Notes under the pieces: model-generated
What the model was told of the DNA's origin: nothing
What the model saw: the letters and a program-made list of their open reading frames with translations, nothing else
Databases searched by the model: none
Assembly (NCBI GenBank): GCA_040882355.1
Contig: JBBEBM010000068.1
Coordinates: 241-64,240, forward strand
Direction: 5' to 3'
Source: Dehalococcoidia bacterium
GTDB taxonomy: Bacteria > Chloroflexota > Dehalococcoidia > DSTF01 > RBG-16-68-14
Length of the DNA stretch: 64,000 nucleotides
Program-made: the position numbers and the translations under genes
Shown: positions 20,809 to 61,519 of the stretch, in pieces
Layout of the letters: each line of letters begins with the position of its first letter
Numbering within the stretch: position 1 is the stretch's first letter

Positions 20809-20895
20809 CTACCTGAACTCCGGCATGACCTCGGCGGCGAACCAGTCCATCCACTCCAGGAAGGGCTCGACGCCGGGGGCGGGCGGCGGGACGAC
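20809..20895 (-). pseudogene. Orphan 3' end of an LLM F420 oxidoreductase homologue
   Basis: 20814-20895 matches 21754-21835 at 72/82 nt. Reads VVPPPAPGVEPFLEWMDWFAAEVMPEFR with its own TAG. Confidence 0.88.
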
Positions 20896-20921
20896 AGCAG
20901 CCCTCGGCGAGCGCCCGGGCC

Positions 20922-21644
20922 TTACTTGCGGGCCAGAAAGACGGCACGGTCGTCGTGGTCTCGATATGTTTTCACCAGCGATACGCTCCGAAAGCCAACT
21001 TCTCGCAGCATCAGCTTCACGCAGCTAAGAGTCGGACCCCAGAAATTGGTCGGATCGTCGTTCAGCGAGCTTCCCGGATAGAACCGCAGGAATGGCTGGC
21101 GGCTCGATGTGATGTAGTGTGTTTCTACCACGGCACATTCTTTGGTAAGCCGGGCCAGGTGCTCAAGCGCCAGAAGGGGGTGCCGCTCATGATAGAGCAC
21201 GCCCAGGAAGAGCACGATATCGAACGATCCTTGGAGAGAAGCAAAGTCACGCTTCTCAAGCTTCAAGCGCGAATCCAGGAGGCGAGCGGCCACTCGAAAG
21301 CCCTCTCCGCCTTGCAGTTCTATCCCATACTTGTCTCTGACAAAGTCCCTGTGTTGGAAGTCATCAATCGGCGTCACCACCGCGCCGCGGCGTTCACACC
21401 AGAACGAGAAGAATCCATCCCAGCAGCCAACGTCTAGGACGGTTTTCCCCTCTAACGAACCTGGGATGGTGTTGGCCCGAACGACCTGGCCTCGCGTGCT
21501 GCTGTGGCCTGGTGTCGTTACTCCATCGCCCAGATCGATGGTGTGCCACCAGAACGGAACCCTGGCGACGGCTTTCAGCTTCCTCTGCCGAAGATCAGGA
21601 ATCGACGCCAACAGAGACACCTCCACAGCTACATTCCTCGCCAC
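20922..21644 (-). CDS. Class I SAM-dependent methyltransferase (CmoB/DUF1698-like)
   Basis: WWHTIDLG..TPG, VLDVGCWDGFFSF, FLGVLYH..HPL, DPTNFWGP. Lower GC. Confidence 0.85.
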   Translation of the reverse strand: MARNVAVEVSLLASIPDLRQRKLKAVARVPFWWHTIDLGDGVTTPGHSSTRGQVVRANTIPGSLEGKTVLDVGCWDGFFSFWCERRGAVVTPIDDFQHRDFVRDKYGIELQGGEGFRVAARLLDSRLKLEKRDFASLQGSFDIVLFLGVLYHERHPLLALEHLARLTKECAVVETHYITSSRQPFLRFYPGSSLNDDPTNFWGPTLSCVKLMLREVGFRSVSLVKTYRDHDDRAVFLARK

Positions 21645-21739
21645 CTACCTTCCGGATCGCGGCGTGACAAGTCTAGCGGAATTTCCGCGTATGGGAAGCA
21701 CCAGACTTAGTGCCACCTGTTGCTGTGTAGACAGGTGCC

Positions 21740-22672
21740 CTAGCTGCCGGCTTTGAACGCCGGCATCACTTCGGCGGCGAACCAGGCCATCCACTCAAGG
21801 AACGGCTCGACGCCGGGCGCGCGGGGCGGGGCGACGAGGGTACCGGTGGCGCCGGCGTCGCGCAGCAGGCCGATCTCGTCGACGATGGCGTCCTTGGTGC
21901 GCGGCGCCTTCGTGCGGCCCAGCTCCTTGTGGGTGTAGTCCTCGACGTTGAGGGGCGCGAGCGGCATGATCACTTCGAACGGGCGCACGCTTTCATCGAA
22001 GCCGGGCTGCTCCTTGATGTAGGCGACCTTGTCGGCGAGCTGGTCGCGCTTCACGAGCCACGGCAACCAGCCGTCGCCGAGGGCGGCGGCGCGCTTCATC
22101 GCCGCCGGTGAGTTGCCGCCGATGAGGATCGGCGGGTGGGGCTTCTGGACGGGCTTCGGCTCGAAGACGATCTTATCGAACTTCACATAACGTCCCTGGA
22201 ACGAAGGGTGGTCGCTCGTCCACAGCTCCTTCATTACGCGCAGGTACTCGTCGGTGATCCGGCCGCGCTCGTGGAAGGGCACGCGCAAGATCTCGAACTC
22301 GCGCTCGAGGTGGCCGGCGGCGGTGCCGAGCGTCATCCGCCCGCCCGAGAGGAAGTCGGCGGTGGCGATCTGCTTCGCGAGCAGCACCGGGTCGCGGTAG
22401 GGGAGGACGAGGACGTAGCTGAGGACGTGGACGCGCTTCGTCGCGCCCGCGAGCAGCGCCGCCGCCGAGAGCGCCTCCGGGAAGCGCGGGCCCATGATCT
22501 CCGCCATCTCGTCCGGCATGACGATGTGCTCCGGCACGGTGAGCCAGTCGAAGCCGAGCTCGTCGGCGTGCTGCGCGATGCGCACGATATCGGCGCCGGT
22601 GGCGTCCTTCTCCCATGCGCTCATCACCGGCGGGTAGAGGATGAGGGCGGGCATGCCCAGGCCGAACTTCAT
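21740..22672 (-). CDS. LLM-class F420-dependent oxidoreductase (TIGR03619-like)
   Basis: GFDWLTVPEHIV, LAKQIATADFLSGGR, PKPVQKPHPPILIGG. Confidence 0.92.
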   Translation of the reverse strand: MKFGLGMPALILYPPVMSAWEKDATGADIVRIAQHADELGFDWLTVPEHIVMPDEMAEIMGPRFPEALSAAALLAGATKRVHVLSYVLVLPYRDPVLLAKQIATADFLSGGRMTLGTAAGHLEREFEILRVPFHERGRITDEYLRVMKELWTSDHPSFQGRYVKFDKIVFEPKPVQKPHPPILIGGNSPAAMKRAAALGDGWLPWLVKRDQLADKVAYIKEQPGFDESVRPFEVIMPLAPLNVEDYTHKELGRTKAPRTKDAIVDEIGLLRDAGATGTLVAPPRAPGVEPFLEWMAWFAAEVMPAFKAGS

Positions 22673-22685
22673 CGGTGTGCTCCTT

Positions 22686-23480
22686 TCATCGTCCCTTAAA
22701 CTCGGGACGTCGCTTCTCGGCGAAGGCGCGCGGGCCCTCCTGCGCGTCCTCGGACGAGAAGACGCGCGCGGCGAGCGAGCGCTCCAGCACGAAGCCCGCC
22801 TCCTGGCCGAGCGCGCGCACGGCGATCTCCTTCGCTGTGCGGACTGCGAGCGGGCCGTTCTTGCAGATCGTTTCGGCCAGCTCGTGCGCCGTCGACATGA
22901 CCTCGCTGCCGGGCACGACGCGGTTCACCAGGCCGATGCTGTACGCTCGCTGCGCGTCGAGGGGGCGGCCGGTGAGCAGCAGCTCCATCGCGACCGCCCA
23001 GGGGACCTGTCGCGGCAGGCGGATGTGGGCGCCGCCCATCGGCACCAGACCCCAGCGCACCTCGCCGAGGCCGAACGTCGCGTGCTCGGCGGCGACGCGC
23101 AGGTCGGTGCCGACCACCATCTCCAGCCCGCCTGCGATGCAGAGCCCGTTCACCGCCGAGATGATCGGCTTGAATGTGTCGGAGAACTGGCGCTTCGTCG
23201 GGTCGTCGTAGCCGAGCATGTCGCCGGCAGTGACGCGCGGGATCGCCTCCTTCAGGTCGAAGCCGGTGCAGAACGCCGGAGCCTGTCCTGAGCCCGGCGA
23301 AGGGCCGGCGCCCGTGAGGATGATGACCCAGAGGTCGTCGTCGGCGTTGAACGCCTCGAAGGCGGCGTCGATGCCGGCGGACATCTCGCCGGTGACGGCG
23401 TTCATCGCCTCCGGGCGGTTGATGGTGATGGTGGCGACGTGGCCGCTCGTTTCATAGAGGATGGTCGGTGGCAGGTCCAT
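22686..23480 (-). CDS. Enoyl-CoA hydratase/isomerase with an in-frame repeat-derived insert
   Basis: INRPEAMNA, KPIISAVNGLCIAGGLE, FGLGEVRWG. AAGGAG RBS before ATG 23480. Confidence 0.9.
   Translation of the reverse strand: MDLPPTILYETSGHVATITINRPEAMNAVTGEMSAGIDAAFEAFNADDDLWVIILTGAGPSPGSGQAPAFCTGFDLKEAIPRVTAGDMLGYDDPTKRQFSDTFKPIISAVNGLCIAGGLEMVVGTDLRVAAEHATFGLGEVRWGLVPMGGAHIRLPRQVPWAVAMELLLTGRPLDAQRAYSIGLVNRVVPGSEVMSTAHELAETICKNGPLAVRTAKEIAVRALGQEAGFVLERSLAARVFSSEDAQEGPRAFAEKRRPEFKGR
23281..23304 (-). repeat. REP-like element CCCTTCGCCGGGCTCAGGACAGGC inside the coding sequence
   Basis: Encodes PSPGSGQA between LTGAG and AFC. Resembles the CCCTTCGACAGGCTCAGGACAGGC intergenic repeat family. 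Confidence 0.6.
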
Positions 23481-23544
23481 GGTGCGCTCCTTCTCCTTTC
23501 CTACCGCACTGTGAACGGTGTGGCGTGCTTCGGTCGACAACGTT

Positions 23545-23592
23545 GTTGCGGCGACCTGCGGTCGCCCAGGGCGACCAGATGGTCGCCCCTAC
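23545..23592. repeat. Inverted doublet of GTAG-type REP sequences (REPIN-like)
   Basis: GTTG-CGGCGACCTGCGGTCGCCC on + and GTAG-GGGCGACCATCTGGTCGCCC on -, each a GGCGACC/GGTCGCC palindrome. Confidence 0.7.
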
Positions 23593-24002
23593 GGGCTCCG
23601 GCGGAACATGGGCAGCGTGATCTCCGGCGTGACGTCCTCGAACGCGACGTCGACCGGCATGCCGATATCGAGCTCGTCCGGCGGGCAGTCGATGACCTGG
23701 CTGACGAGCCGCACGCCTTCCTCCATCTCGATGACGGCGGCGGCGTAGGGCGCGTCGTCCGCGAAGGCGGGGTGCATCGCGCGCGCCGCGACCGTCCACG
23801 TGAAGACGGTACCGCGTCCGCTCGACGGCGCCCACTCCCACCCGAACGACCCGCACCGCGCGCACATCGCGCGTGGGACGTGGCGCCAGGCGCTGCACGA
23901 CGAGCAGCGCTGGAAGCGCAGCTCGCGCTTCTTGCACCAGCCGTAGAACTCGCCGGCGAGGCCTTCGAGCAGCGGCAGCGGCTTCGCGTAGGGCGCGCTC
24001 AT
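23589..24002 (-). CDS. DUF35 Zn-ribbon/OB-fold protein
   Basis: LRFQRCSSC..CARC, SSGRGTVFTWT, IGMPVDVAFE. Confidence 0.92.
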   Translation of the reverse strand: MSAPYAKPLPLLEGLAGEFYGWCKKRELRFQRCSSCSAWRHVPRAMCARCGSFGWEWAPSSGRGTVFTWTVAARAMHPAFADDAPYAAAVIEMEEGVRLVSQVIDCPPDELDIGMPVDVAFEDVTPEITLPMFRRSP

Positions 24003-25168
24003 CGTCTCAGCACCGCGATGCTGCCGTCCCCGAAATCGCCCCAGCCGGTGACGACGCCGATCTTCGCGTCCGGCACCTGACGTGCGCCCGCCTCGCCACG
24101 GAGCTGGCGCACAGCCTCGACGATGTGGTTCATGCCGAGCACGTGCGCCTCGGAGAGTAAGCCGCCGTGTGTGTTCACCGGGAGCTCGCCGCTCAGCTCG
24201 ATGCGTCCGCCTTCGACGAACGCGCCGCCTTCGCCGCGCTTGCAGAAGCCCGCCTCCTCGATCTGCTGGAGCGCCTCGAAGGTGAAACAGTCGTAGACCT
24301 GAGCGAAGTCGACGTCTCTCGGGGTCACTCCAGCCATCGCGAACGCGAGCGGCGCGGCGCTAGTCAGGCCGGTGCGGAAGATGTCCGCGCGGTTCGTGAT
24401 CTCGTCCGCCGGGTAGGGGTGGCCCTCCGCGACACCCGAGATGAAGACGGGCCGCTGCTTCAGGTCGCGCGCCCGCTCGGCGCTCGTTACGACGACCGCC
24501 GCCGCGCCGTCGGTCTCGAGGCAGCAGTCGAAGAGCCGGTACGGCCCGGCGATCTCCGGCGACGCGAGGTACTCTTCGATCGTCATCGGGCGGTCGCGCA
24601 TGACGGCCCTCGGGTTGAGCTGGGCGTGCTTGCGCATGGTGAGCGCGATCGCGCCGAGCTGCTCGGGCGTCGTGCCGAACTCGTGCATATGGCGACGCGC
24701 CATCAGCGCGTACCACTGCGGCGGCGCGGTCAGCCCGTACGGCAGGTAGTAGTCGCGGGCGATGGCGCCGCCCGGCATCGACGAGACGTCGGTCGCGACC
24801 GTCTCGCTCGCGCGGCGCCCGGAGTAGGCGTTCCAGCCCGCCGGAATCAGCACGTGCGTCGCGACGCCGCCCGCGACGGCCATCGCCGCGCTCTGGAGCG
24901 AGGCGACCGGCGCGGCGCCGCCCATGTGCACGGTCGCCGCGAAGCGCAGGTCGTCGATGCCCAGGTTCGCGGCGAACTCTTCGGCGCTGCCGAGGCCGGG
25001 GAACGGCATGATGCCGTCGATCTGCTTCGGCGTGAGGCCGGCCTCCTCGATCGCGCGCAGCGACGCTTCGAGCTGAAGCGTGAGCGAGCTTGCGGTCGAG
25101 GTCTTGTCGCGGGTGTAGGCGGTCTCGCCCACACCGACGATGCAGGCCTGGTCCTTGAGCGAGGGCAT
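23999..25168 (-). CDS. SCP2-thiolase-like lipid-transfer protein
   Basis: IVGVGET, DCCLETDG, YDCFT, NTHGGLLSEAH. Confidence 0.9.
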   Translation of the reverse strand: MPSLKDQACIVGVGETAYTRDKTSTASSLTLQLEASLRAIEEAGLTPKQIDGIMPFPGLGSAEEFAANLGIDDLRFAATVHMGGAAPVASLQSAAMAVAGGVATHVLIPAGWNAYSGRRASETVATDVSSMPGGAIARDYYLPYGLTAPPQWYALMARRHMHEFGTTPEQLGAIALTMRKHAQLNPRAVMRDRPMTIEEYLASPEIAGPYRLFDCCLETDGAAAVVVTSAERARDLKQRPVFISGVAEGHPYPADEITNRADIFRTGLTSAAPLAFAMAGVTPRDVDFAQVYDCFTFEALQQIEEAGFCKRGEGGAFVEGGRIELSGELPVNTHGGLLSEAHVLGMNHIVEAVRQLRGEAGARQVPDAKIGVVTGWGDFGDGSIAVLRR

Positions 25169-25183
25169 TCGGGAGAGAGCGGG

Positions 25184-26173
25184 TCAGCTACCGGCGGCGC
25201 TCTCGGCCTGCCCGGGAGGCGACTGCACGCGCTTGGTGGGTTCGATGCCGGTGAGCTTCGCGAGGTTGAGGCCGAGGATCTTCGCGCGGATCTCGTCCGT
25301 GATCGCCGGGTAGCCCCACTGCTGCTGTAACTCGACGGGGATCTCGAGCGTGCGGATGTAGTCGACGCAGTCCTTCATCGTGACGCCGGGCCAGTCGAGG
25401 CCGAAGACGACCTTGTCGGGCCCGGCCCATTCGAGCGCCTCGCCCAGCATGTGGTAGCCGCGGTAGGGCGCCCGCGCGAACCAGCCGACGATGCCCGAGA
25501 TGCCGACGTAGAGGTTGCGGTGCTTGCCGGCGAGGCCGAACAGCTCCTCGTGGTAGGGCCAGCCCATGTGGTAGGCGATGATCCGCAGGTCCGGGAAGTC
25601 GAGGCAGACGTCGTCCAGCAGGATGGGCAGCGTGTACTTCGTCGGCTGCGGAACGACGTAGGACATGCCGGTGTGGATCGTGAGCGGCACGCCCAGGTCC
25701 TGCGCCTTCTCATAGAAGGGCCACATCTCGGGGTCGTTGAGCGGGCCGTCCTCGCAGGCGTAGACCTTGCAGAGCTTGGCGTCGCGCTCCTTCACCAGGT
25801 ACTCCAGCTCCCAGATCGCGTGCTTGACGCCGCGCTTCAGAATCGGCCCGACGTTGCACTCCAGGTACATGCGGTCGGGGTAGGGCTCGATCTCCTTCAT
25901 GATGAAGCCGTTGGTCGACATCGGCGCCGCGAAGCCGGTCACGTCCATCATCGACTCGCGCAGCCCGAACGCGACGTCTACGCCGGCCTCGTCCATCTGC
26001 TTGATCAGCTCCGACGCGCGGGGCGGCGCGGGGGTGTGCGGGCCACCCCATACTCGCGCGACGCCGCTCATCGCGCTGCGGAACCAGCGCCGCACGTCCG
26101 GGTAGTAGCCGACCTCCGAGAAGTCGCCCATGAGATGGCATTCGGACGCGGCGATGAAGTAGTCAGTGGTCAT
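25184..26173 (-). CDS. Amidohydrolase_2 family protein
   Basis: MDEAGVD, GVPLTIHTG, FPDLRIIAYHMGWP, FGLDWP, KILGLNLAKL. Confidence 0.88.
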   Translation of the reverse strand: MTTDYFIAASECHLMGDFSEVGYYPDVRRWFRSAMSGVARVWGGPHTPAPPRASELIKQMDEAGVDVAFGLRESMMDVTGFAAPMSTNGFIMKEIEPYPDRMYLECNVGPILKRGVKHAIWELEYLVKERDAKLCKVYACEDGPLNDPEMWPFYEKAQDLGVPLTIHTGMSYVVPQPTKYTLPILLDDVCLDFPDLRIIAYHMGWPYHEELFGLAGKHRNLYVGISGIVGWFARAPYRGYHMLGEALEWAGPDKVVFGLDWPGVTMKDCVDYIRTLEIPVELQQQWGYPAITDEIRAKILGLNLAKLTGIEPTKRVQSPPGQAESAAGS

Positions 26174-26248
26174 GCCGGGTATCGCCTCGAGCTAGTCGCT
26201 CGGCGGAGTTTACCTTAGCGTTTCGTCGCTTCGACCGTCAAGCCACTC

Positions 26249-26389
26249 GCAGGGTACTGAAAAAGCCCATGAACCAATGTCATTCGTTCCCACCCGCCCG
26301 CCCAGGGGAGTGTTGGTGAATCTGGGGGGACACCCCGAGACCCCCGGCAGGGGCGCTGCCCTCTGCACCCCCGTTTTTCAGCACCCTGC
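26249..26389. mobile_element. MITE (141 bp) with IS5/IS1182-style terminal inverted repeats
   Basis: Left end GCAGGGTACTGAAAAA (26249-26264) vs reverse complement of the right end GCAGGGTGCTGAAAAA (26374-26389), 15/16. CTAG at the right end, CTCG at the left. No ORF. Confidence 0.8.
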
Positions 26390-26790
26390 TAGGCGTCCAG
26401 CACGAAGACGGGCAGCGACTGCTCTCGCCAGTCCTCCCACTCGACGTGGACGGGAGTGCCGATGCTCACGGGAGCATCTTCCGCCGCCCGCAGTTGGGCG
26501 ATCACGCGCGGGCCCTCCTCCATCTCGACGAGCGCCACGGTGTAGGGCGCTGGAAACGCCGGGTGCGTCTGGTGCCTCACGATGGTGTAGCTGTAGATCG
26601 TGCCGCGCCCGCTCGACGTGATCCACTCGGACTCGAAGGTGCGGCACGCCGGACAGAGCGGGCCCACGGGGTAGCGGACCGACTGGCACTGCGTGCAGCG
26701 CTGGAACTTCAGCTCATGGTTGTTCTGCGCCTCCCAGAAGGGCGCCGTGTCGCGGTCCGGAATCGGGAAGGGCCGGGGTAGTTCGCCCAT
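26389..26790 (-). CDS. DUF35 Zn-ribbon/OB-fold protein
   Basis: PFWEA, FQRCTQC..CPAC, SSGRGTIYSYT. Confidence 0.92.
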   Translation of the reverse strand: MGELPRPFPIPDRDTAPFWEAQNNHELKFQRCTQCQSVRYPVGPLCPACRTFESEWITSSGRGTIYSYTIVRHQTHPAFPAPYTVALVEMEEGPRVIAQLRAAEDAPVSIGTPVHVEWEDWREQSLPVFVLDA

Positions 26791-27953
26791 CAGGACGGCT
26801 CCTTAGCGAGGATGATCGCGCTGGTCGGCACGCCGACTCCGCTCGTGACGAGGCAGGTTTTCACGTCCGGTACCTGGTTCACGGCGGTGCCCCGGATCTG
26901 CCGCACGCCTTCAACGATGTGCCCGAAGCCGTGGAGGTAACCGTCGCCCAGGTGGCCGCCGTGCGTGTTGAAGGGCATCGCTCCGTCCAGCTCCAGGCTT
27001 CCGTCGTGGAAGAGCGCGGGCGCTTGTCCGGGCGCGGCGAAGCCGTACGCCTCGAGCTGCATGAGCACCATCGGCGTGAAGGGGTCGTAGATCTCCGCCA
27101 CGTCGATGTCCTTCGGCTCCAGCTCGGCGACGCGATAGATCTCGCGCGCTGTCGATTCTGACTCCTCCAGCCGCGCCAGGCTTTCGCGCTGGTAGCTGGT
27201 CATCATCTCGGTACGGCTGCCGGTCCCCTGCGCGGCCGCGGCGATGTAGGCCGGTACGCCCTTTAGCGCCTTCGCTCGTTCCGCGGATACGACGACCGCG
27301 GCGCAGGCGCCGTCGGTGTCGAGGCAGCAATCGAGGAGCCGCAGCGGCTCCGCGATCCAGCGGGAGGACTGGTGGTCCTCGAGCGTGATCGGCCGTCCGT
27401 ACATCATCGCGTGCGGGTTGGTCGCAGCGTGCTTGCGCGTGAGCACGGACACGTGACCGAGCTCTTCGGTGCCATAACCGTACTCATGCAGGTAGCGCTG
27501 GCCGAAGATCGCGACCCACTGGGCAGGTGTCACGAGCCCGTGTGGCAGGTAGTACTGTCGCCAGTGCGTCACGCCGCCGCCGAAAGCCGAGACGCCGAAA
27601 CGGCGCTCCGACCGCTCGTTGAGCGAGCGAAACGTGACGACGACGTCGGCCATGCCCGCCGCGACGGCGGAGGCGCCGACGGCGATCGTCCCGCAGGCCG
27701 CTCCTCCGCCGTGAGGCACCTCGGCGAAGTAGCGAAGGTTCGCGAGATTGAGCGAACGCAGGAGGTCGATCTCGAAGATGTCGTCGTTCGCGCTCATCTT
27801 GACGACGGCGTCTACGTCTTCAGGCTTCAGCCCTGCGTCGGCCAGCGCCTCCAGGATCGCTTCCAGTGCCATGTGCAGCGTGCTGCGCCCAGAGTCCTTC
27901 GAGAACTCCGTCTGGCCGACGCCGACAATCGCCGCCTTGTTGCGGATGGTCAT
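26790..27953 (-). CDS. ltp2: Ltp2-like steroid side-chain aldolase (SCP2-thiolase fold)
   Basis: AAIVGVGQTEFSKDSGRS, HGGGAACG, FRSLNERS..RFG, YDPFTP, NTHGGHLGDGYLHG. Flanked by ACAD pair, MaoC pair and DUF35. Confidence 0.75.
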   Translation of the reverse strand: MTIRNKAAIVGVGQTEFSKDSGRSTLHMALEAILEALADAGLKPEDVDAVVKMSANDDIFEIDLLRSLNLANLRYFAEVPHGGGAACGTIAVGASAVAAGMADVVVTFRSLNERSERRFGVSAFGGGVTHWRQYYLPHGLVTPAQWVAIFGQRYLHEYGYGTEELGHVSVLTRKHAATNPHAMMYGRPITLEDHQSSRWIAEPLRLLDCCLDTDGACAAVVVSAERAKALKGVPAYIAAAAQGTGSRTEMMTSYQRESLARLEESESTAREIYRVAELEPKDIDVAEIYDPFTPMVLMQLEAYGFAAPGQAPALFHDGSLELDGAMPFNTHGGHLGDGYLHGFGHIVEGVRQIRGTAVNQVPDVKTCLVTSGVGVPTSAIILAKEPS

Positions 27954-29047: not shown

Positions 29048-29049
29048 CG

Positions 29050-30213: not shown

Positions 30214-30215
30214 GG

Positions 30216-52497: not shown

Positions 52498-52518
52498 TCG
52501 GCCGGCCGGCTGTCGTGC

Positions 52519-53274: not shown

Positions 53275-54216
53275 CTACGTGTCCACCAGGTAACCGAAGA
53301 CGCTCTCGAGCGATTCGTCCAGCGGCTCCACGCGCAGCAGGCGGATCGCGCGGTCGCGGGCCAGGCGCGGGATCGATCGCTGGAGAGCGTCGACGTTCTT
53401 GCTCAGCACGACCAGGGCGCCCTCCCTGTCAACCGCTACCGATTCCACCGCCTCCAGCTCGATGAGCGCCGCCGCCATGGAGCGCGGATCACCGGCGACA
53501 ACGCGTACCTTGTAAGGACGCTCGTCTAGCTTCGCCCGGATGGCGTGGAAGTCGCCGGACGCGGCGAGCTTTCCGCTCACCATCAGAAGGATGCTGTCCG
53601 CCAGCGTCTCGACCTCCTCCAGAATGTGCGAGGAGATGAGGATCGTTCGCCCTTCGGCAGCGAGGCGGTGCATGACCTCCTGAAACTCGATGCGCTGCCG
53701 GGGGTCCGTCCCGTTGAGCGGTTCGTCCAGCAGGATCACCTCGGGATCGTGGACCAGCGTCGCACCCAGCCGGATCCGCTGCCGCATGCCGCGAGAGTAG
53801 GTGCCGATCGCCCGGTCCTGCACGTCGACGAGTCCGACGATCTCGATGGCCCGGTCCACCGCCGGCGCCAGCCGTTCGAGGCCATGCAGGCGCCCGGCGA
53901 ACTCGACGAGCTCCCGGCCGGTCAGCTTCTCGTAGACAGCCTCTTGCTCCGACATCACGCCGACTCGTCGATACAGGTTCGGATTGACGCGCACCGCCTC
54001 CCCCAGCATGCGCGCCGACCCCTCCGAAGGCTTGGCGAGGCCCGCGATCACCCGCAGCAACGTGGTCTTGCCGGCGCCGTTCGCTCCGAGAAGGCCCGTG
54101 ATCCCTGGATACACCTGAAGCGACACGTCATTCACAGCCACGACGTTGCCGAACCACTTCGATAGACGATCGACTTCGATAGTTGGTGTGGCCGTGCCGG
54201 TCGCTGGCCCCGTCAT
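53275..54216 (-). CDS. ABC transporter ATP-binding protein
   Basis: GANGAGKT, YSRGMRQR, LLDEP, SSH. Confidence 0.93.
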   Translation of the reverse strand: MTGPATGTATPTIEVDRLSKWFGNVVAVNDVSLQVYPGITGLLGANGAGKTTLLRVIAGLAKPSEGSARMLGEAVRVNPNLYRRVGVMSEQEAVYEKLTGRELVEFAGRLHGLERLAPAVDRAIEIVGLVDVQDRAIGTYSRGMRQRIRLGATLVHDPEVILLDEPLNGTDPRQRIEFQEVMHRLAAEGRTILISSHILEEVETLADSILLMVSGKLAASGDFHAIRAKLDERPYKVRVVAGDPRSMAAALIELEAVESVAVDREGALVVLSKNVDALQRSIPRLARDRAIRLLRVEPLDESLESVFGYLVDT

Positions 54217-55154
54217 GTCCGGAACCTGCGATAACGCCACCAGAGCACGAACCCCGGTCCAGCAGTGAGGACCACGTACCAGCCGATGGGGACGGCGCTG
54301 GGATGCTCCCTCACGCGCGCGGCGAACTCCGACCCGCTGTCTTCGTCGAAGATCACGTCGCTTACGTGCATCGGCACCTCGGGAAGGGAGAGGAGCGCGA
54401 ACCACTTCGCCGCGTCTCCCGTAACGGGTTCGCACTTCTCTTCGGGAGCGCCGGCGGCCTGTGTCCCTTGCGACTCTTCATCCCCGCACAGCGACAAGAC
54501 GCCGGCGACCGGCAGCGAGACCAGGTAGAGCGCAATGACGATCGCTGCGGCGTACGCCCGACGTGTTGTGAAAGTCGACACAGCCAGGGGGAGTGTCGTG
54601 GCGAAGATCGCAATGACGAGTCCAGCGCTGAGGAAGCGGGGCACATCTAACCAGTTGTCACGTAGGTACTCGATCGGTTCCTCGTCGGCTAGGGTCAAGC
54701 CCCCGAACAAGACGATCTGACCGATCCATACCAGCGCAAGCGTCACCGACAGAAACGCCGCCCAGCGTGCGGCCACGTAGTCCGTCGCGGTCAAGGGACG
54801 CACCAGATACAGATCGATGACTCGGTCTCGGCGGTCCGGGCAAAGCAGCTCTGGAGCGATGGTCGCGGAGAACAGGAACAGGACCACCGCGACGATGCGG
54901 TAGTAGTCGGCATGGGTTGGCAGCTCGTCACCGATCTCGGCTGTTGCGGCGGCCAGGCTCATGAAGACCGCAGGGAACACGACCGCTACAAACAGCAGCG
55001 CCGGGAGCACTTTGGACGGCCAGCCTCGCCCAATCCCAAGCGCCGTGCGCACGCCATCCTGCCAGAGCGCCTTCCGCGCGCGCGTTCGCCCCTGGCGCGG
55101 CCCGTCATAGTGATGGTAGCCGAGGTCGAAGATCTCGCCGCGGGCCTCGCTCAT
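54213..55154 (-). CDS. ABC-2 type permease
   Basis: IFDLGYHHYDGPR, APELLCPDRR..LYLVRPL, TM segments. Confidence 0.88.
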   Translation of the reverse strand: MSEARGEIFDLGYHHYDGPRQGRTRARKALWQDGVRTALGIGRGWPSKVLPALLFVAVVFPAVFMSLAAATAEIGDELPTHADYYRIVAVVLFLFSATIAPELLCPDRRDRVIDLYLVRPLTATDYVAARWAAFLSVTLALVWIGQIVLFGGLTLADEEPIEYLRDNWLDVPRFLSAGLVIAIFATTLPLAVSTFTTRRAYAAAIVIALYLVSLPVAGVLSLCGDEESQGTQAAGAPEEKCEPVTGDAAKWFALLSLPEVPMHVSDVIFDEDSGSEFAARVREHPSAVPIGWYVVLTAGPGFVLWWRYRRFRT

Positions 55155-56059
55155 TCCGGGCTGCTCCGGAAGATGTCGGCGAGTCCCCCACGACGCGGCG
55201 CCAGCCGGCGCAGGCGGACGTCCGCTTCCACAATCGCGTCCCGGATCTCGTCGTACAGCGCCTCATCCGTGAGCTCGACGACGACCGACGAGCCGTCCAC
55301 CTTCCCCTCGATTCCCCTGGTAGCCAGCGCAGCGGCCAGCTCTTCGCATCCGGCGTCCACCTCGATGACGATGCTTGAGGTCTCCTGAGTGAAGCGAGCG
55401 ACCGCTCCCTCTTCGGTGACGTGACCGCCGTCAAGCACGATGATCCTGTCGCAGGTCCGGTCGATATCGCCCATTAGGTGCGACGACAGGAGGACGCTGA
55501 TGCCGGCCTCGTGGCTAGTCCGTCGAATGAGCTCCAGCATCTCCTCGCGACCGCCCGGATCGAGGCCGGCGGTAGCCTCGTCTAGCAGCACGAGGACAGG
55601 ATCGTGCACCAGCGCCTGCGCCAGTTTCACCCGCTGCTTCATGCCCGTGGAGAACTCGTTCAGGGGCCGGTAGCGCTCTTCGTGCAGGCCCACGTGTCGT
55701 AATGCGTCCGCCGCGCGGACCCGGGCCTGGGTCGGCGGTAGCCCGCTGACCTGCGCCATGTGCGCCAGAAACTCCGAGGCGTTGATGGCGGACGGCAGGC
55801 AGTCGTGCTCGGGCATGTAGCCCAGGCGCGCCCGAACCTCCACGGACTCGTAGGCCTTCTGACCCATCACCTCCGCCGAGCCTTCTGTTGGCGTGAGCAG
55901 TCCCAGGAAGAGCTTGATCGCGGTGCTCTTGCCGGCGCCGTTCGCGCCGAGCAGCCCGGTCACTCCTGCGTGGACCTGGAAGTCGACAGCATCAAGGGCG
56001 ATGGTGTTCCCGTACCGCTTGGTCAGACCCTTCGCTTCGAGGAGCGGCGCCGCTGTCAC
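55151..56059 (-). CDS. ABC transporter ATP-binding protein
   Basis: GANGAGKS, FSTGMKQR, LLDEAT, SSH. TATACT 6 nt before the GTG (probably leaderless). Confidence 0.92.
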   Translation of the reverse strand: MTAAPLLEAKGLTKRYGNTIALDAVDFQVHAGVTGLLGANGAGKSTAIKLFLGLLTPTEGSAEVMGQKAYESVEVRARLGYMPEHDCLPSAINASEFLAHMAQVSGLPPTQARVRAADALRHVGLHEERYRPLNEFSTGMKQRVKLAQALVHDPVLVLLDEATAGLDPGGREEMLELIRRTSHEAGISVLLSSHLMGDIDRTCDRIIVLDGGHVTEEGAVARFTQETSSIVIEVDAGCEELAAALATRGIEGKVDGSSVVVELTDEALYDEIRDAIVEADVRLRRLAPRRGGLADIFRSSPE

Positions 56060-56131
56060 GTGCCAAGTATATTCGAGGCTCGCCCTAGCGGAGAACACCT
56101 TGCCCGGTCGGAACGGCCCGAAGTTTGGAGA

Positions 56132-56305
56132 TGGTGGAGACGGGGGAGAATTGAACTTCCCGTCCGCAGTTAGATCAACGGGCCAGCCTGGCCGGCCTAA
56201 GCCCGCGGGTGTGCGGTTGGTGGAGACGGGGGAGATCGAACTCCCCGTCCCCAGTCAGAAGACGGGCCGGCCCCGGTTGCGGGCACGACCTGCGCTCATT
56301 GTGGT
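56132..56305 (-). repeat. Two extra tandem copies of the tmRNA 3' end (T-arm + acceptor strand + CCA)
   Basis: TGGTGGAGACGGGGGAGA..GAACT.CCCGTCC at 56132-56165 and 56218-56250 vs 56306-56339; period 86/88 nt. Confidence 0.92.
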
Positions 56306-56653
56306 TGGTGGAGACGGGGGAGAATTGAACTCCCCGTCCAGAGAAGGGCCGGCCTGAGGTACTACAGGTGTGTCCGGCGGTTCATTCTCGTCCGGTGGGC
56401 CATCGCCGGCCCGGCTTCACCGGATAGAGCCGATGAGACTTAGGCGACCCGTATCGGCGTCAGGCCGTCGCACCTCGACTGATCGTCGCTGCTTCACAGC
56501 CCGTCGAGGAGAGGCTTGTGGGCAACGTCACCGCCTAAGCGGCGAGGGCGAGCTGTTGTTCGCCGGTTAGCTGTTTGCCACCAGTTTAACGAGGCAGCGG
56601 CACCTCGACCTGCACCTCAGGTTCACGCTTCCCTGTCGAACCCTTTCGTCCCC
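56306..56653 (-). ncRNA. ssrA: tmRNA; tag peptide (A)GEQQLALAA
   Basis: 5' GGGGACG pairs with 3' CGTCTCC-ACCA including G3.U; TTCGAC near the 5' end; TAACC-GGC GAA CAA CAG CTC GCC CTC GCC GCT TAG; 348 nt. Confidence 0.96.
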
Positions 56654-56666
56654 AGAGTGCGCCCTC

Positions 56667-56675
56667 AGTATACCA
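56667..56675 (-). promoter_or_regulatory. Extended -10 promoter of ssrA
   Basis: TGGTATACT 13 nt upstream of the mature 5' end. Confidence 0.65.
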
Positions 56676-56697
56676 CGCCGCGGCGAGGGCCTCGCGC

Positions 56698-57426
56698 CTA
56701 CGGGTCGGCGTCGACGGCCACGGGGGCCGTGCCGCCCAGCGCCGGGCTCGTCTCCGCCGTGTCGATCCGCCCGTCCAGCATGCGCACGATACGGTCCGCC
56801 GCGGCCGCGATGGTCGGGTCGTGGGTCACGAGGAGCAGCGTCGCACCGTGAGTGCGCTGCACCTCGCGCAGCACCTCCAGCACGCGCAGGCCGGCTTTCG
56901 AGTCCAGGTTTCCGGTCGGCTCGTCCGCCAGCAGAATCGGCGGGTCGTTGCTCAGCGCCCGCGCGATGGCGACGCGCTGGCGCTCGCCGCCCGAGAGCTC
57001 CGTTGGGCGCTTGTTCGCCTTGTCGCCCAGGTCGACCAGCTCCAGCAGCTCCTGCGCGCGCTGCCGGCGCTTGCCCGCCGAGAGCCCCGTCTCGTACATC
57101 GGCACCTGCACGTTCTCGCTCGCCGTCAGCGTGGGCAGCAGGTTGTGGAGCTGGAACACCAGGCCGATCGTGCGCGCCCGGTAGCGGCTGAGGTCGCGCT
57201 TGTGCGTGATCTCTTCGCCGTTGACGAAGATCTCGCCTTCGTCGGGGCGCTCCAGCGCCGCGATCACGTGGAGCAGCGTCGACTTGCCGCAGCCCGACGG
57301 CCCGGTGAGCGCGACGAACTCGCCGCGCCGCACCTGGAAGGTCGCTCCGTCGAGCGCGCGCGTGCGCCCGTCGTCGAACGTCTTCACGATGCGGCGTACG
57401 TCGATCGCGATGTCCTGGTCACTCAT
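56698..57426 (-). CDS. LolD/MacB-type ABC ATP-binding protein
   Basis: GPSGCGKS, LSGGERQR, LADEPTGNLD, VTHD. Confidence 0.93.
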   Translation of the reverse strand: MSDQDIAIDVRRIVKTFDDGRTRALDGATFQVRRGEFVALTGPSGCGKSTLLHVIAALERPDEGEIFVNGEEITHKRDLSRYRARTIGLVFQLHNLLPTLTASENVQVPMYETGLSAGKRRQRAQELLELVDLGDKANKRPTELSGGERQRVAIARALSNDPPILLADEPTGNLDSKAGLRVLEVLREVQRTHGATLLLVTHDPTIAAAADRIVRMLDGRIDTAETSPALGGTAPVAVDADP

Positions 57427-58543
57427 AGCGGATCGCCTGGGCCGGCGAGAAGCTCGCAGCGCGATACGCCGGGTAGAGCGCCCCGAGCAACGCGACTGTA
57501 AGGCCAATCGCGAAGCCCCTCAGGAACACCTCCAGCGGGTACTCAGGTGTGATAAACGCACGGACCGTCGGAAGCGTCACGATGAGGCGGGTTAGCGCGA
57601 CGGCAACCAGCGACCCCAGGACCGACGCGATCAAGCACAGCACCAACGATTCGCCCAGCACCATCTGGAGGATGCGCCTCGTTCGCCAGCCCACGGCGCG
57701 CAGAATGCCGAACTCTCGCGTCCGTTCGAACACCGCCATGACCATCGTGTTCATCACCGCTATCCCTCCAATGAAGACGGCCAGGATGGTGATCCCCAGG
57801 TTGATCGCGTTCATGATCTCCAGGCCCTGGTCCACCTCCCCAATGTCGTCGATCTCCACGAGCGTCGCCAGGGCGGTGTGGTCGGCCTCGATCTGGTCCG
57901 CGAAGGTTTGTACGGCGACTCCTGGCTGGACGCGGACGAAGAAAAGAGAGTAGAGGTCAGGCGTGTTCTCAAGCTCACGAAGGTCGTCGAGGGACAGCAG
58001 CGCGCCACCGTCCAGGTAGGTCGTTCCACTGTTGTAGATGCCGACGACGGTGAACGCCTCATCGGGCTCCCTTCGCATGATCACCGTTTCGCCGATCTCG
58101 GCGCCCAGGTCGCTCGCCGCCTGGTCGCCCAGCATCACCTCGCGCGTCGCGCCTTCCTCGAGATGCCGGCCTTCCACGAGCGGCGCGTCGAAGTAGTCGA
58201 GGTCCGCCGGGTGAATGCCAAGCTGCGCGAAGAACGGGTTCGATCCAACGCGGGCGAACGCCATCAACACCGGCGTCACGTGCTCGATGTCGTCGTACGC
58301 TTCGACGTCTGCGAGGTCGTCCTCGGTAAGGACGCTCAGCGTCAGATCGGAGCTGCCCGCCCTGCCAATCGCGAAGTCGGAACCGCCCGCGGTGAACAGC
58401 TCGCCGGTGGCGCTCAGGGCGCTCTCGGTGATGATGCCCAGCGCGACCACGGCGGTGATGCCGATGCTCATGCCAAGCACGGTGAGGCTCGTGCGGATCT
58501 TCTGACGTAGCAGGTTGCGCAGGATGAGCAGGACAAAGGGCAT
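57419..58543 (-). CDS. MacB/FtsX-type ABC permease
   Basis: RNLLRQKIRTSLT, NTMVMAVFERTREFGILRAVGW, YPAYRAA..P..AIRYE. Confidence 0.93.
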   Translation of the reverse strand: MPFVLLILRNLLRQKIRTSLTVLGMSIGITAVVALGIITESALSATGELFTAGGSDFAIGRAGSSDLTLSVLTEDDLADVEAYDDIEHVTPVLMAFARVGSNPFFAQLGIHPADLDYFDAPLVEGRHLEEGATREVMLGDQAASDLGAEIGETVIMRREPDEAFTVVGIYNSGTTYLDGGALLSLDDLRELENTPDLYSLFFVRVQPGVAVQTFADQIEADHTALATLVEIDDIGEVDQGLEIMNAINLGITILAVFIGGIAVMNTMVMAVFERTREFGILRAVGWRTRRILQMVLGESLVLCLIASVLGSLVAVALTRLIVTLPTVRAFITPEYPLEVFLRGFAIGLTVALLGALYPAYRAASFSPAQAIRYE

Positions 58544-58770
58544 GGTGGGGGCCTCCCAGGCTCGGTCCGTATCCTCCGTATTCTATCAGTGCGCTCGTGG
58601 CGAGAGGCGATGGCCGGATGGGGCACCTTCTCGCGGGCTGTCCGGCTCTCGTTGTGCGAGCTAGCTGACAGAAACGAAGCTCCGAGCGGCGGGTACGGGT
58701 ATGGTCTTTTCGGACTCGATGGGTGCTATCATGCCCTCGGCACACGCTGGTGCGTTCACAGGAGGTCCCC

Positions 58771-59898
58771 ATGTACGATGCAATCGTGGTCGGCTCCCGC
58801 TGCGCAGGTTCACCTACAGCCATGCTGCTCGCCCGCAAGGGCTACAAGGTGCTCCTGGTCGACAAGGCCAGCTTCCCCAGCGACATCATGTCCACGCACT
58901 ACGTCCATATCCCGGGCGTCGCGCGGTTGCAGAACTGGGGCCTGCTGGACAAGGTCCACGCGTCCAACTGCCCGCCGATCACCAGCATCACGCTGCACAT
59001 GAACGGCCTGCCCTTCACGCCGCCGCCTCCGCCCGTGCCCGAGGGCGCCGAAGCGCCGCCCGCCTACTGCCCGCGCCGCACCGTGCTCGACAAGATACTC
59101 GTCGATGCAGCGGTCGAGGCCGGCGCGGAGCTGCGCGAAGGGTTCGCCGTGCGCGAGCTGGTCCGCGACGGTGACGCTGTTGCCGGCATCACGGGCGGCG
59201 CCGTCGGTAGCAGCTCGCTCGTCGAAGAGCGGGCGAAGTTCGTCATCGGCGCGGACGGCATGCACTCTGTCGTCGCCCGCGAGGTGCAGGCGCCTGAGTA
59301 CAACACGAAGCCGTCGCTCAGCTTCGGCTACTACGCCTACTGGAGCAACGCGCCCGGCGGCGCCGAGATCCACTTCACCGACGACGGCGGCGCGCTCTGC
59401 TTTCCCACGAACGACGGCTTGACGTGCGTGGCCGTTGGCGGCCCGACCGACATGTTCCCGGAGTTCCGCAAGGACATCGAAGCGAACTACATGAAGATCG
59501 TCGGGAAGATACCTCTGGTCGCCAAGCGCCTGGGCAACGCCAAACGCGAGGAGCGCTTCGTCGGGACGAACGACCAGCCAAATTTCTTCCGCAAGCCCTA
59601 CGGCCCCGGCTGGGCCCTGGTGGGCGATGCCGGTTACCATCGCGACTTCATCACCGGCCTGGGCATCAGCGACGCCTTCCGCGACGCCGAGTACCTCACG
59701 GACGCGCTCGACGAAGGGTTCTCCGGCAAGCGGCCGCTTGACGAGGCGCTCCGCGACTACGAGCAGCGCCGTAACAAGATCGCCGAGCCGCTGTACGATC
59801 TGACGATTCAACTCGTCAGCGGCGACCCGCCTCAGCCCGAGCAGTTCCTGGCCTTCGGCGCCGCGATGGCCGCCATGATGCCGAACGGCGCCGAGTAA
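58771..59898 (+). CDS. NAD(P)/FAD-dependent oxidoreductase (geranylgeranyl reductase-like)
   Basis: YDAIVVGSRCAG, PRRTVLD, IGADG, GWALVGDAG..D...G.GI. GGAGG RBS. Confidence 0.9.
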   Translation: MYDAIVVGSRCAGSPTAMLLARKGYKVLLVDKASFPSDIMSTHYVHIPGVARLQNWGLLDKVHASNCPPITSITLHMNGLPFTPPPPPVPEGAEAPPAYCPRRTVLDKILVDAAVEAGAELREGFAVRELVRDGDAVAGITGGAVGSSSLVEERAKFVIGADGMHSVVAREVQAPEYNTKPSLSFGYYAYWSNAPGGAEIHFTDDGGALCFPTNDGLTCVAVGGPTDMFPEFRKDIEANYMKIVGKIPLVAKRLGNAKREERFVGTNDQPNFFRKPYGPGWALVGDAGYHRDFITGLGISDAFRDAEYLTDALDEGFSGKRPLDEALRDYEQRRNKIAEPLYDLTIQLVSGDPPQPEQFLAFGAAMAAMMPNGAE

Positions 59899-59901
59899 CG
59901 C

Positions 59902-60381
59902 ATGGACGTCGCGTCCTTCGCCGAGATCGAGGCCGAATTCAATGCCCGCATCAGTCGCATCGTCTGGTGCACCATGGCGACCGTCGACCGCCAGGGTCGC
60001 CCTCGCACGCGCATCATCCACCCGATCTGGGAGGGCGCGACGGGCTGGATCGCTACCGGTCGCCACTCGCTCAAAGAGAAGCACCTTGCCCGCAACCCGA
60101 ACGTCTCGCTCAGCTACTGGGACCAGCAGCACCAGCAGGTGTACGTCGACTGCACGGCCGAGTGGGTGGACGACCAGGCGGAGAAGGTGCGCATCTGGGA
60201 GCTGTACAAGAATACGCCGCCTCCGCTGGGCTACGACCCGCAGATGATCTGGCAGGCCGGGCCGGACGATCCCGGCTACGGCCTGCTCAAGCTCACACCC
60301 CGGCGCATCGAGCTGTTCTCGCTCGCCGACCTGATCACGGGCACGGAGCCCAAGATCTGGCACGCAACGGGGCGCGTGTAG
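59902..60381 (+). CDS. Pyridoxamine 5'-phosphate oxidase-like (split-barrel flavin/F420) protein
   Basis: WCTMATVDRQGRPRTRIIHPIWE, K...LARNPNVSLSYW, GYDP. Confidence 0.88.
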   Translation: MDVASFAEIEAEFNARISRIVWCTMATVDRQGRPRTRIIHPIWEGATGWIATGRHSLKEKHLARNPNVSLSYWDQQHQQVYVDCTAEWVDDQAEKVRIWELYKNTPPPLGYDPQMIWQAGPDDPGYGLLKLTPRRIELFSLADLITGTEPKIWHATGRV

Positions 60382-60431
60382 ACGGCGGCTCCGGCGGGGA
60401 GCGGGATCTATTGTTCGTCGCCTTTTTTTCG

Positions 60432-61010
60432 TTATTCGACACCGGGCAGTCCCTGAACGTCTACGTCTATGCGGGTGAGGGGCGCGTCGCGTCCCTGGCG
60501 ACGATCCTGCAGGGCCTGGAGCTCATGCAGAGCGTGTAGGAGCTGGCGACTGAGTCTTGCCTCGTACTTTGAGAGGGTCTGGAGGACCTGGGCCTCCGGA
60601 AGAACCGCGGGCGGCTCAGGCGGCAGACGTGGTGCAGGGAGCGTCTCGGAGACCTCCTCGGGGAAGAATTGGCGACCGAGAGAAAGGACGAGCGCGGCCG
60701 GCGGGCTGACGGCGGGTCCGCCTTCGAACGCGCGCCGCCTGGCTATGGCGATGGCGGCATCGCGCTCGGCGCGGGGGGCGCGCCGGAGGCGCCAGAGGAG
60801 CGTGGCGACGCGCTCAGCGAGGGCGTACTCGACGGCGCCGATGGGTGCGAGCGCGGTTAGCGCATCGGCAAGGAACTGGTCCCAATCGTTCTGTAGCTCA
60901 AGGCCAGGAATGACGATACAGGGGGAGCGAAGGCCGTGGCGGACGGCGTTCTTGCTCACGCGGGCCTTGGCCCGGGGTGACCGAGGACCGGTTTGTGTCA
61001 TAGACATCAT
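60432..61010 (-). CDS. Hypothetical protein of the TGPR..K..S.NA.RHGL family
   Basis: TGPRSPRAKARVSKNAVRHGL, WRLRRA, YEARLSRQL..ALHELQALQ. Confidence 0.75.
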   Translation of the reverse strand: MMSMTQTGPRSPRAKARVSKNAVRHGLRSPCIVIPGLELQNDWDQFLADALTALAPIGAVEYALAERVATLLWRLRRAPRAERDAAIAIARRRAFEGGPAVSPPAALVLSLGRQFFPEEVSETLPAPRLPPEPPAVLPEAQVLQTLSKYEARLSRQLLHALHELQALQDRRQGRDAPLTRIDVDVQGLPGVE

Positions 61011-61072
61011 GCTGCAAGGTGGCGCGCGATCCTGGAAGGGGTTAGTGGCGCAGGAGGGCCACGCCGGCTACC

Positions 61073-61147
61073 ACGACCCGCAGATGATCTGGCAGGCCGG
61101 GCCCGACGACCCCGGCTACGGCCTGCTCAAGCTCATCTCCTGGCGCA
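61073..61147 (+). pseudogene. Orphan 3' part A of a PNPOx-like gene homologue
   Basis: Matches 60233-60307 at 69/75 nt. Confidence 0.9.
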
Positions 61148-61207
61148 ACAGCAAGGCCCAACTTCTCAGCATGCCCTGCTCCTTGATTAAAGAGCTCAAG
61201 TAGACAA

Positions 61208-61441
61208 TTAGCCATCGACGAGCTCTGCTCTCAAGTACGGAGTCCGAAACTCATACTGAAGTGCCTCGAGGTATCTATCTCCATCACTGGGCTGGAGTCG
61301 CTCCTGTGGATTCCCTGGCTGAAGGACAACCATGGTGGCGATCATATCTAGGTCAATATCTCCTGTTACACGGAGTGATTGCCGGCGAATACTCACTTCG
61401 CCGAGTATCTTACTATCGATATCCTTAAAGATCAGCTTCAT
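61208..61441 (-). CDS. 77-aa hypothetical protein on a low-GC insert
   Basis: ATG..TAA ORF with AT-richer codons fills most of the 61148-61455 insert. Confidence 0.65.
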   Translation of the reverse strand: MKLIFKDIDSKILGEVSIRRQSLRVTGDIDLDMIATMVVLQPGNPQERLQPSDGDRYLEALQYEFRTPYLRAELVDG

Positions 61442-61455
61442 TCGGGATCCAACAT

Positions 61456-61519
61456 CATCGAGCTCTTCTCGCTCGCCGACCTGATCACCTACGCGGAGCC
61501 GCAGGTCTGGCGGCCCTAG
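61456..61519 (+). pseudogene. Orphan 3' part B of a PNPOx-like gene homologue, with its own stop
   Basis: 61456-61510 matches 60306-60360 at 47/55 nt; reads IELFSLADLITYAEPQVWRP*. Confidence 0.88.

Follow-up and report, generated by a model that had tools for sequence, protein, structure and literature searches.

In this work, gene 3' ends that are repeated behind small inserts were analyzed in the window, a 64,000-nt stretch of contig C68 in a metagenome-assembled genome (MAG) of a Dehalococcoidia bacterium (Chloroflexota), an uncultured organism from sediment whose MAG comprises 3.33 Mb on 82 contigs with 67% GC. At three loci of the window, an intact gene is accompanied downstream by one or two stranded copies of its own 3' end (Table 1), and the genes concerned are a luciferase-like monooxygenase (LLM) gene, a PNPOx-like gene, and the tmRNA gene ssrA. 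A first-pass annotation, made from the letters alone, had described these loci as one shared architecture, and a repeat search found all three where it had placed them, with offsets of 940 and 840 nt at the two protein-coding genes and two tails behind ssrA. The direct repetition of a target's 3' end around an insert, with the gene left intact, is a feature of att-type elements, and this feature is present here. Furthermore, the annotation had noted that the window holds no integrase or transposase, and a Pfam scan of its 58 open reading frames (ORFs) agreed, with no integrase, resolvase, or transposase family among them.

Table 1. Positions of the duplicated gene ends, their cargos, and the adjoining gene in the window
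Feature	Position	Strand	Remarks
Intact LLM gene	21740-22672	-	Pfam Bac_luciferase 1.3e-49
Attached LLM tail copy T1	21754-21835	-	82 nt, 88% vs orphan
LLM-locus cargo, 858 nt, GC 0.58	20896-21753	-	one methyltransferase ORF, 20922-21644
Orphan LLM tail T2	20809-20895	-	own TAG at 20809-20811
ssrA (tmRNA) gene	56306-56653	-	ARAGORN; Rfam RF00023, 142.6 bits
First orphan ssrA 3' end (T-arm, acceptor strand, CCA)	56211-56251	-	blastn 37 nt, 94.6%
Second orphan ssrA 3' end	56125-56165	-	blastn 34 nt, 97.1%
Intact PNPOx-like gene	59902-60381	+	Pfam PNPOx_N 1.4e-16; attached tail 60233-60361
PNPOx cargo, 687 nt	60382-61068	.	one 192-aa ORF (60432-61010, -), no Pfam family
Orphan PNPOx tail, part one	61073-61147	+	92% vs 60233-60307, 75 nt, offset 840
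Nested 308-nt insert, ~50% GC	61148-61455	.	77-aa ORF (61208-61441, -), no Pfam family
Orphan PNPOx tail, part two, own TAG	61456-61519	+	61456-61511 vs 60306-60361: 56 nt, 86%, offset 1150
Alpha/beta-hydrolase (esterase) gene, convergent	61521-62597	-	Pfam; 1 nt from orphan PNPOx stop

The three loci of the window

At the PNPOx locus, the attached gene ends in ..KIWHATGRV* and departs from the family-typical ..WRP*, being reminiscent of ..VWHAG* in the relative G008. The orphan ends in ..EPQVWRP*, which is the type of most orthologs (..QVWRP* in G006). By tblastn synteny, PNPOx is directly convergent on the esterase gene in G008, G004, and G001; the esterase is thus the native neighbor of PNPOx in these relatives, and they show the empty site, while the PNPOx loci of the remaining five relatives have other arrangements. 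Relatives of the 192-aa cargo protein are encoded on five metagenome contigs. One of them (L160) carries an FAD-monooxygenase, PNPOx, and the cargo homolog contiguously, in the order and orientation seen here. Its nucleotide similarity is unbroken across the PNPOx gene end (75% over 700 nt) and colinear through the intergenic region and the cargo ORF, and no orphan tail follows the cargo homolog on L160, which makes this a donor-type arrangement. On the other four contigs the cargo lies amid unrelated housekeeping genes. The microhomology at the cargo/orphan join (2–3 nt), judged against L160, was uninformative. The nested second insert that the annotation had seen is indeed there: it splits the orphan tail with a 2-nt overlap (CA) where the two parts join, and the genome contains no second copy of it. 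The FAD-monooxygenase/PNPOx/esterase region (58723–62597) as a whole is variable in the family, in that four of eight relatives carry ~0.3–0.9 kb between monooxygenase and PNPOx, and the same four have a different convergent gene downstream.

A draft genome in 82 contigs with tails that resemble two alleles could also have arisen by chimeric assembly, in which two coexisting strains are joined on one contig. The two PNPOx copies share an exact 31-mer, and k=31 contigs branch there. However, a genuine arrangement requires the cargo-to-orphan junction in reads, and k=31 contigs from four runs of one sediment metagenome study (X1–X4; region covered, 55800–61800) contain it for the PNPOx locus (X1 record 6, 60234–61102; X2 record 16; X3 records 23 and 24), although run X1 is possibly the source sample and this support is therefore only partly independent. 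No joint that skips the cargo was seen among the 15 joints listed of 35, and contigs of this kind cannot show absence. At most loci the copies have no long exact word in common, so the assembly graph is not ambiguous there. Moreover, the same scars exist in a single-contig MAG of the same order (G027, one locus) and in a 20-contig assembly of the same family (G006, two loci). Chimeric assembly is thus an extremely improbable source of the pattern.

At the LLM locus, the attached tail is matched by 20814–20895 of the orphan at an offset of 940 nt, and the last codons of the intact gene (..PAFKAGS*) lie beyond the repeat and are read from cargo-adjacent DNA. The orphan end, ..WMDWFAAEVMPEFR, resembles ..WMDWFAEEIMPEFRK of the ortholog in G012; orthologs in G010, G006, and G012 have 71–75% amino acid identity to LLM. 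The cargo holds a methyltransferase unit of ~800 nt (about 20923–21687), which runs from ~75 nt upstream of the ORF to ~10 nt past its stop and recurs in three other genomes of the family with 80–88% nucleotide identity, its ends being constant in four unrelated contexts. The LLM gene itself reaches only 73–79% nucleotide identity to its orthologs, which is below that of its cargo. A gene-head repeat of 32 nt (29/32) flanks the unit in G015 and a repeat of 21 nt (20/21) flanks it in G011; at 10 of the 12 methyltransferase-homolog loci, including that of G014, no flanking repeat above shuffles was found. A candidate hairpin past the LLM stop was rejected, as 6 of 200 shuffles fold equally well (z –1.85). 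The gene that adjoins the orphan tail (19734–20771, 345 aa) has a RelA_SpoT synthetase domain only (5.5e-16); its product is a small alarmone-synthetase-like protein, and this neighbor is not shared by relatives with an LLM ortholog.

The copies of the ssrA 3' end follow each other at spacings of 88 and 86 nt, with one ~35-nt core common to all three and ~50 nt between copies, and k=31 contigs span the tails without one difference (X1 record 1, X2 record 9). A simple tandem repeat was rejected, because Tandem Repeats Finder reported a 9-nt micro-repeat only and the spacers cannot be aligned with each other. The tandem islands of Dehalococcoides, which have a serine-recombinase module, are bounded by over a dozen 20-bp ssrA repeats, as described in the available text of PMC3146451. 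Repeats of the ssrA 3' end lie downstream of ssrA here too. According to the same text, the Dehalococcoides islands have a 20-bp repeat from a T-loop crossover, are kb-sized, and encode the serine recombinases DsiB/DsiA (PMC3146451), whereas the ~35-nt core here covers the whole T-arm, the spacers measure ~50 nt, and no recombinase is nearby. The ssrA tails are more likely relic att-type repeats of ssrA-targeting elements that would not belong to the Dehalococcoides island family. Since there is no cargo, one core is common to all copies, and ssrA is a documented attachment site of islands, we kept this locus apart from the protein-gene loci with which the annotation had pooled it.

Divergence and limits of the paired gene ends

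The divergence between attached and orphan copies was followed codon by codon in the tail pairs of the whole genome, 16 of 19 being used, ungapped (C4, C42b, and C59 were excluded as gapped or largely non-coding). In 429 codons, the 122 mismatches are split 27/27/68 over codon positions 1/2/3, and 61 of the 106 changed codons are synonymous with 45 replacements (share 0.575). With the same substitutions placed at random, 24.9 ± 4.3 synonymous codons were expected with a maximum of 40 (share 0.235), none of 2000 simulations reached 61, and third-position changes numbered 38.2 ± 4.6 against the 68 observed. For an identical duplication followed by neutral decay of the orphan and constraint on the gene copy, the rough expectation is a synonymous share of ~0.35–0.4. 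Much of the tail divergence seems to predate the event and to have accumulated under purifying selection, and the orphan seems to have decayed since as well. At five loci, 23 replacement differences were polarized by hand against orthologs: 11 are derived in the orphan and 2 in the attached copy, while 7 can be read either way and 3 agree with neither copy. The annotation's stranded old tail was thus aptly named, the orphan being the decaying copy. Its further view, that the tails are alleles and not decayed local duplicates, agrees with the synonymous excess and does not cover either the orphan decay or the identical pairs. A diversity-generating retroelement was rejected, because all substitution types occur with no adenine specificity (reverse transcriptase was not searched for).

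The derived changes in the orphans would also follow if a long target stretch had been duplicated in situ, by staggered breaks, template switching, or replication-based repair, with copies identical at first and the orphan decaying afterward. Pairs with 100% identity, which are the 95-nt tail of a Ku gene, a 61-nt gene head on contig C79, and a 45-nt tail (T2) in G006, fit such a course, as does the array in G006 to which this T2 belongs, where identity is complete in the proximal orphan and 90–91% in the distal ones, and where one orphan carries an in-frame TAG. Nevertheless, the 61 synonymous changes among 106 exceed the rough expectation for this course, and the attached PNPOx end with its cargo has a colinear natural counterpart in another lineage. 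The 429 orphan codons contain no stop, which is a weak point, since none is expected in 32% of simulations. We consider in situ duplication a rather improbable origin of the set.

The repeats of this genome measure 39–226 nt with 84–100% identity, and on the right they end with the stop codon or slightly beyond it. The copies use different stops in four loci (TAA/TGA, TAG/TGA, TAA/TGA, and TAA/TAG). At LLM and PNPOx the copies cease to be similar two codons short of the stop, and the C-terminus of the attached gene is different. Limits at the stop codon together with differing ends would be the expected pattern of two orthologs with different downstream neighbors. A listing of the boundaries of 17 pairs gave no common motif at the repeat ends, and the shared junction motif that the annotation had proposed to look for was thus not found. 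An integron-type cassette array was rejected as well, as there is no attC-like shared site, no junction motif, and no relation among cargos save one tandem pair.

Recurrence in the genome and in relatives

The genome-wide search for repeated gene 3' ends that the annotation had called for was made as a self-blastn of all contigs, in which high-scoring segment pairs (HSPs) of 35–260 nt with at least 84% identity and a spacing of 250–5000 nt were retained. After removal of 67 of the 148 HSPs as repeat-rich (>3 other hits), 81 isolated direct-repeat HSPs remained. By our own gene calls, 18 of them join a gene 3' end to an intergenic orphan downstream and only one to an orphan upstream, which is a downstream bias beyond chance, and the same filters left two inverted HSPs, neither in the gene-3'-end class. 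The 18 HSPs correspond to 17 protein-gene loci in 3.33 Mb, 14 of which have at least one called ORF in the cargo. Mirror-image loci, with an orphan 5' head upstream of cargo and intact gene, numbered three by the strict classifier and about six by eye. The cargos are 0.24–3.3 kb long, mostly of lower GC, single-copy, and carry 0–3 unrelated genes of accessory or defense type. An all-against-all blastn of 37 cargos for a common sequence gave only a tandem pair on C42 and a few matches of ≤36 nt. Pfam families were assigned to 16 of 26 cargo proteins from 18 loci, the other 10 having no family, and none is a recombinase. The families include a CAP12-type TIR, HEPN with nucleotidyltransferase, PIN with MazE, AbiEi with AbiEii, and MerR-DUF433; ABC1 and APH kinases, SnoaL, a cyclase, and TadE-like proteins were also present.

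Two loci outside the window have perfect repeats. The last 95 nt of the Ku gene (C35:27899–28516) are repeated 523 nt downstream with TAA against TAG as stop, a pair that the classifier missed; the insert separates Ku from a 912-aa ATP-dependent ligase ORF ~3 kb further. At C79:21260–22141, a HEPN/nucleotidyltransferase pair is located within the head of a 523-aa gene, between two 61-nt copies of that head. The orphan head keeps the native GTG and the upstream DNA and forms a 24-codon ORF, the stop of which overlaps the nucleotidyltransferase start (TGATG), and the host gene has acquired a new TTG start that overlaps the stop of HEPN. Judging from these overlaps, the cassette seems to borrow the expression signals of the host gene. 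At C34b, an empty site is seen in relatives: the flanking genes are 115–295 nt apart in six of them, 660 nt in G003, 1867 nt in G010, and 3.4 kb here. At C17a and C34a, the relatives' synteny breaks at the gene end, so that the direction is unreadable, and no donor or empty-site arrangement was found; of 16 relatives, only one has an ortholog of the C1a host gene. The annotation's statement that cargo was inserted behind a gene is therefore upheld for PNPOx and C34b, while elsewhere the synteny of relatives breaks at the same point.

With the same pipeline, 760 kb of G006 yielded 4 HSPs at 2 loci and 761 kb of G027 yielded one locus. The locus density in both is not significantly lower than that of 18 HSPs in 3.33 Mb here, the numbers being too small, and a lineage-specific phenomenon was not upheld, as a density of similar order of magnitude was observed in a different family. 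In G006, three cassettes form an array behind a 345-aa gene (C7:95060–100550), in the order gene, cargo, 45-nt tail (100%), cargo, 80-nt tail (90%), cargo, and 135-nt tail (91%). The in-frame TAG is in the 80-nt tail, and the native downstream gene adjoins the last tail directly. Two cassettes have ORFs of 476 and 297 aa and the third has no convincing ORF. Three repeat lengths at a single target argue against a fixed crossover site.

These counts bear on the annotation's broadest proposal, a general trans-acting route of single-gene capture, which in its strictest form would be a dedicated system of the lineage that recognizes gene ends and installs single-gene cassettes. The high density of 17 loci in 3.33 Mb, cargo limits near ORF ends with the constant methyltransferase unit in four genomes, and the stop–start overlaps on both sides of the C79 cassette could be expected from such a system. 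However, neither the junctions nor the cargos were found to share a motif, hairpin, or sequence, the repeats vary in length and the cargos in size, cargos hold 0–3 genes, 5' heads are duplicated as well as tails, and relatives have a similar density. The general route is not supported by these results, and a dedicated system is very improbable.

The same variability is relevant to site-specific integrative elements with replacement 3' ends, of which the loci could be remnants or trans-mobilized minimal forms (like cis-mobilizable elements, CIMEs), with the integrase lost or located elsewhere. The architecture equals attL/attR at gene 3' ends with the gene restored, and integrase-less elements between att repeats are discussed for Dehalococcoides in the available text of PMC3146451. 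For ssrA this is the best reading, given the common ~35-nt core and the tandem ssrA repeats of Dehalococcoides (PMC3146451), and the constant ends of the methyltransferase unit would fit it too. The genome has five tyrosine-recombinase matches, two directly beside tRNA genes and one a fragment at a contig end; two of the five would be Xer proteins, to judge from score and length, which leaves three non-Xer matches besides one short resolvase-family ORF on another contig (C4:86033). Yet none of the five tyrosine or the one resolvase-family matches is at a tail-duplication locus, and the full-length non-Xer integrases are at tRNA genes. Recombinase families are absent from the 26 cargo proteins and from 25 proteins flanking cargo homologs in other genomes. 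Furthermore, 17 different targets would need many specificities and have no shared junction core, repeats of 45, 80, and 135 nt occur at one G006 target, and cargos go down to 0.24–0.7 kb. For the protein-gene loci, we regard element remnants as unlikely.

Proposed origin of the scars and their meaning

With modest confidence, we lean toward the view that the protein-gene loci are scars left when DNA from diverged relatives was added by homology-anchored integration that needed no integrase. Recombination based on homology, which the annotation had named among the known routes to such a scar, is the best explanation of the mechanism. The donor would be a related but diverged genome, from which a fragment carries a conserved gene end with the donor's neighboring or accessory gene(s), and this fragment would recombine into the resident gene end by means of the host's general recombination machinery. 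As the most likely route, a circular or recircularized fragment would enter the chromosome by one (Campbell-type) crossover, which would duplicate exactly the shared segment on both sides of the insert; in a variant, one-sided homologous recombination would be completed by an illegitimate second join that lands upstream. The outcome would be a whole gene followed by the cargo, with a useless second copy of the tail left to decay on the former downstream DNA, and arrays would grow where the same gene is hit more than once. Events that truncate genes would be lost in a tightly packed genome, so that only tail- or head-restoring outcomes would be seen. From these scars we infer a circular intermediate as well as how the DNA entered and which enzymes took part; as gene presence only, the genome encodes ComEC, DprA, Ku, and the ATP-dependent ligase (the 912-aa ORF).

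Known systems resemble parts of this picture. The element e14 in icd of E. coli is an integrative element that restores the 3' end of its target gene. In C-terminal displacement arrays (orphan rhs/cdiA-CT), it is a variable toxin tip that is displaced along with its immunity gene, and in the minimal mobile elements of Neisseria, cassettes are exchanged via conserved flanks with no duplication left. Both bring in new modules via conserved flanks, and old ends are orphaned in arrays much as in G006, whereas the part duplicated here is the conserved tail of ordinary metabolic genes. Integrative elements with att-type repeats, among them the Dehalococcoides ssrA islands and the tycheposons (bioRxiv 10.1101/2020.12.28.424599), also show a direct 3'-end repeat downstream of an intact gene, tandem accretion, and integrase-less units. 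Unlike such att-type elements, the loci here lack an integrase or DsiB-like serine recombinase both within the cargos and near them, and they have many protein-gene targets and variable repeat length.

The closest experimental precedent comes from E. coli, where 56 of 60 clones obtained with one-sided lacZ homology had the homologous segment duplicated over 109–950 bp (Amarir-Bouhram et al. 2011, PMC3240628). In the available text, the authors explain them by a single crossover of a circular molecule, true homology-facilitated illegitimate recombination (HFIR) with deletion being rare (PMC3240628). The insert is flanked there, as here, by a direct duplication of exactly the homologous segment without a site-specific recombinase, and a gene end serves as the anchor. 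That assay used laboratory conjugation and an identical lacZ segment on a plasmid (PMC3240628), whereas the scars here are natural, rest on 39–226 nt of 84–100% identity, hold chromosomal accessory cargo, and have an intermediate that we infer. HFIR in natural transformation likewise needs one homologous anchor and no integrase, and both ComEC and DprA are present here; unlike these loci, where a recipient segment is duplicated, it usually deletes recipient DNA of similar size, according to the portion of PMC3240628 available. In pneumococcus, interchromatid integration of transforming DNA creates duplications (PMC3784515), and a variant with sister-chromatid bridging, as described for pneumococcal merodiploids in the available text of that paper, would be needed for HFIR to fit.

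Several results weigh against homology-anchored integration. The perfectly identical Ku and C79 pairs fit an in situ duplication equally well, and the 11 of 13 polarizable replacements that are derived in the orphan make part of the divergence a product of decay after insertion. Replacement tails borne by an element would also diverge synonymously, and the test of synonymous excess does not exclude them. Homology alone cannot explain the constant ends of the methyltransferase unit in four contexts. For LLM no donor arrangement was seen, as an LLM, RelA-like, or ECH neighbor is absent from all 36 genome loci that carry the methyltransferase. The C34b orphan is not contiguous with the conserved neighbor, 2.8 kb more lying between them, and the HSP classes depend on gene calls that are our own and crude. 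Finally, the read data, which consist of k=31 contigs from one study, revealed neither a circular form nor an empty-site allele nor an actual donor.

The scar type is known from integrative elements and from laboratory single-crossover products; its frequency, its integrase-free state, and its allelic signature in an environmental genome are modestly new. A limited keyword search of the literature did not find a genome-wide description of integrase-free scars, and we do not claim that none is in print. Tentatively, and it may well prove otherwise, in Dehalococcoidia and perhaps in many lineages poor in mobile elements much single-gene gain could proceed without an element-encoded recombinase, through host recombination of circularized or one-sided-homology fragments at conserved gene ends. 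This would address the open question of how genomes with few plasmids, phages, and transposons gain accessory and defense genes, given that homology-facilitated integration has so far been shown mainly in laboratory crosses. It would mean that duplicated gene ends are a readable footprint of natural rate, donors, and cargo spectrum, genome by genome, with a countable signature (a gene end repeated past a small insert, with synonymous differences) from which frequency, donor distance, and cargo could be estimated, and that some cassettes, like the toxin–antitoxin pair of C79, were installed to borrow a host promoter and translation start. For annotation, short orphan gene ends would be neither random pseudogenes nor proof of a lost integrase, and att relics of the tmRNA type should be separated from protein-gene scars.

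Some further features were observed. Short GC-rich palindromes of the GTCAGCCTGAAGGCTGAC type, often in tandem, are located after native gene ends (C17:118801–118830 and C34:24900–24928) and also in relatives (L037, 1985–2066; L038, 1983–2132), and a dispersed repeat of 73 nt occurs at C17:133449, 134611, and 134819. At the start of the window, overlapping genes for a MazE-type antitoxin and a PIN-domain toxin are present (882–1651). They are followed at 1669–33082 by a long series of paralogous acyl-CoA dehydrogenase, thiolase-like, ChsH2-type OB-fold, hydratase, and CoA-transferase genes, which resembles steroid or side-chain degradation clusters.

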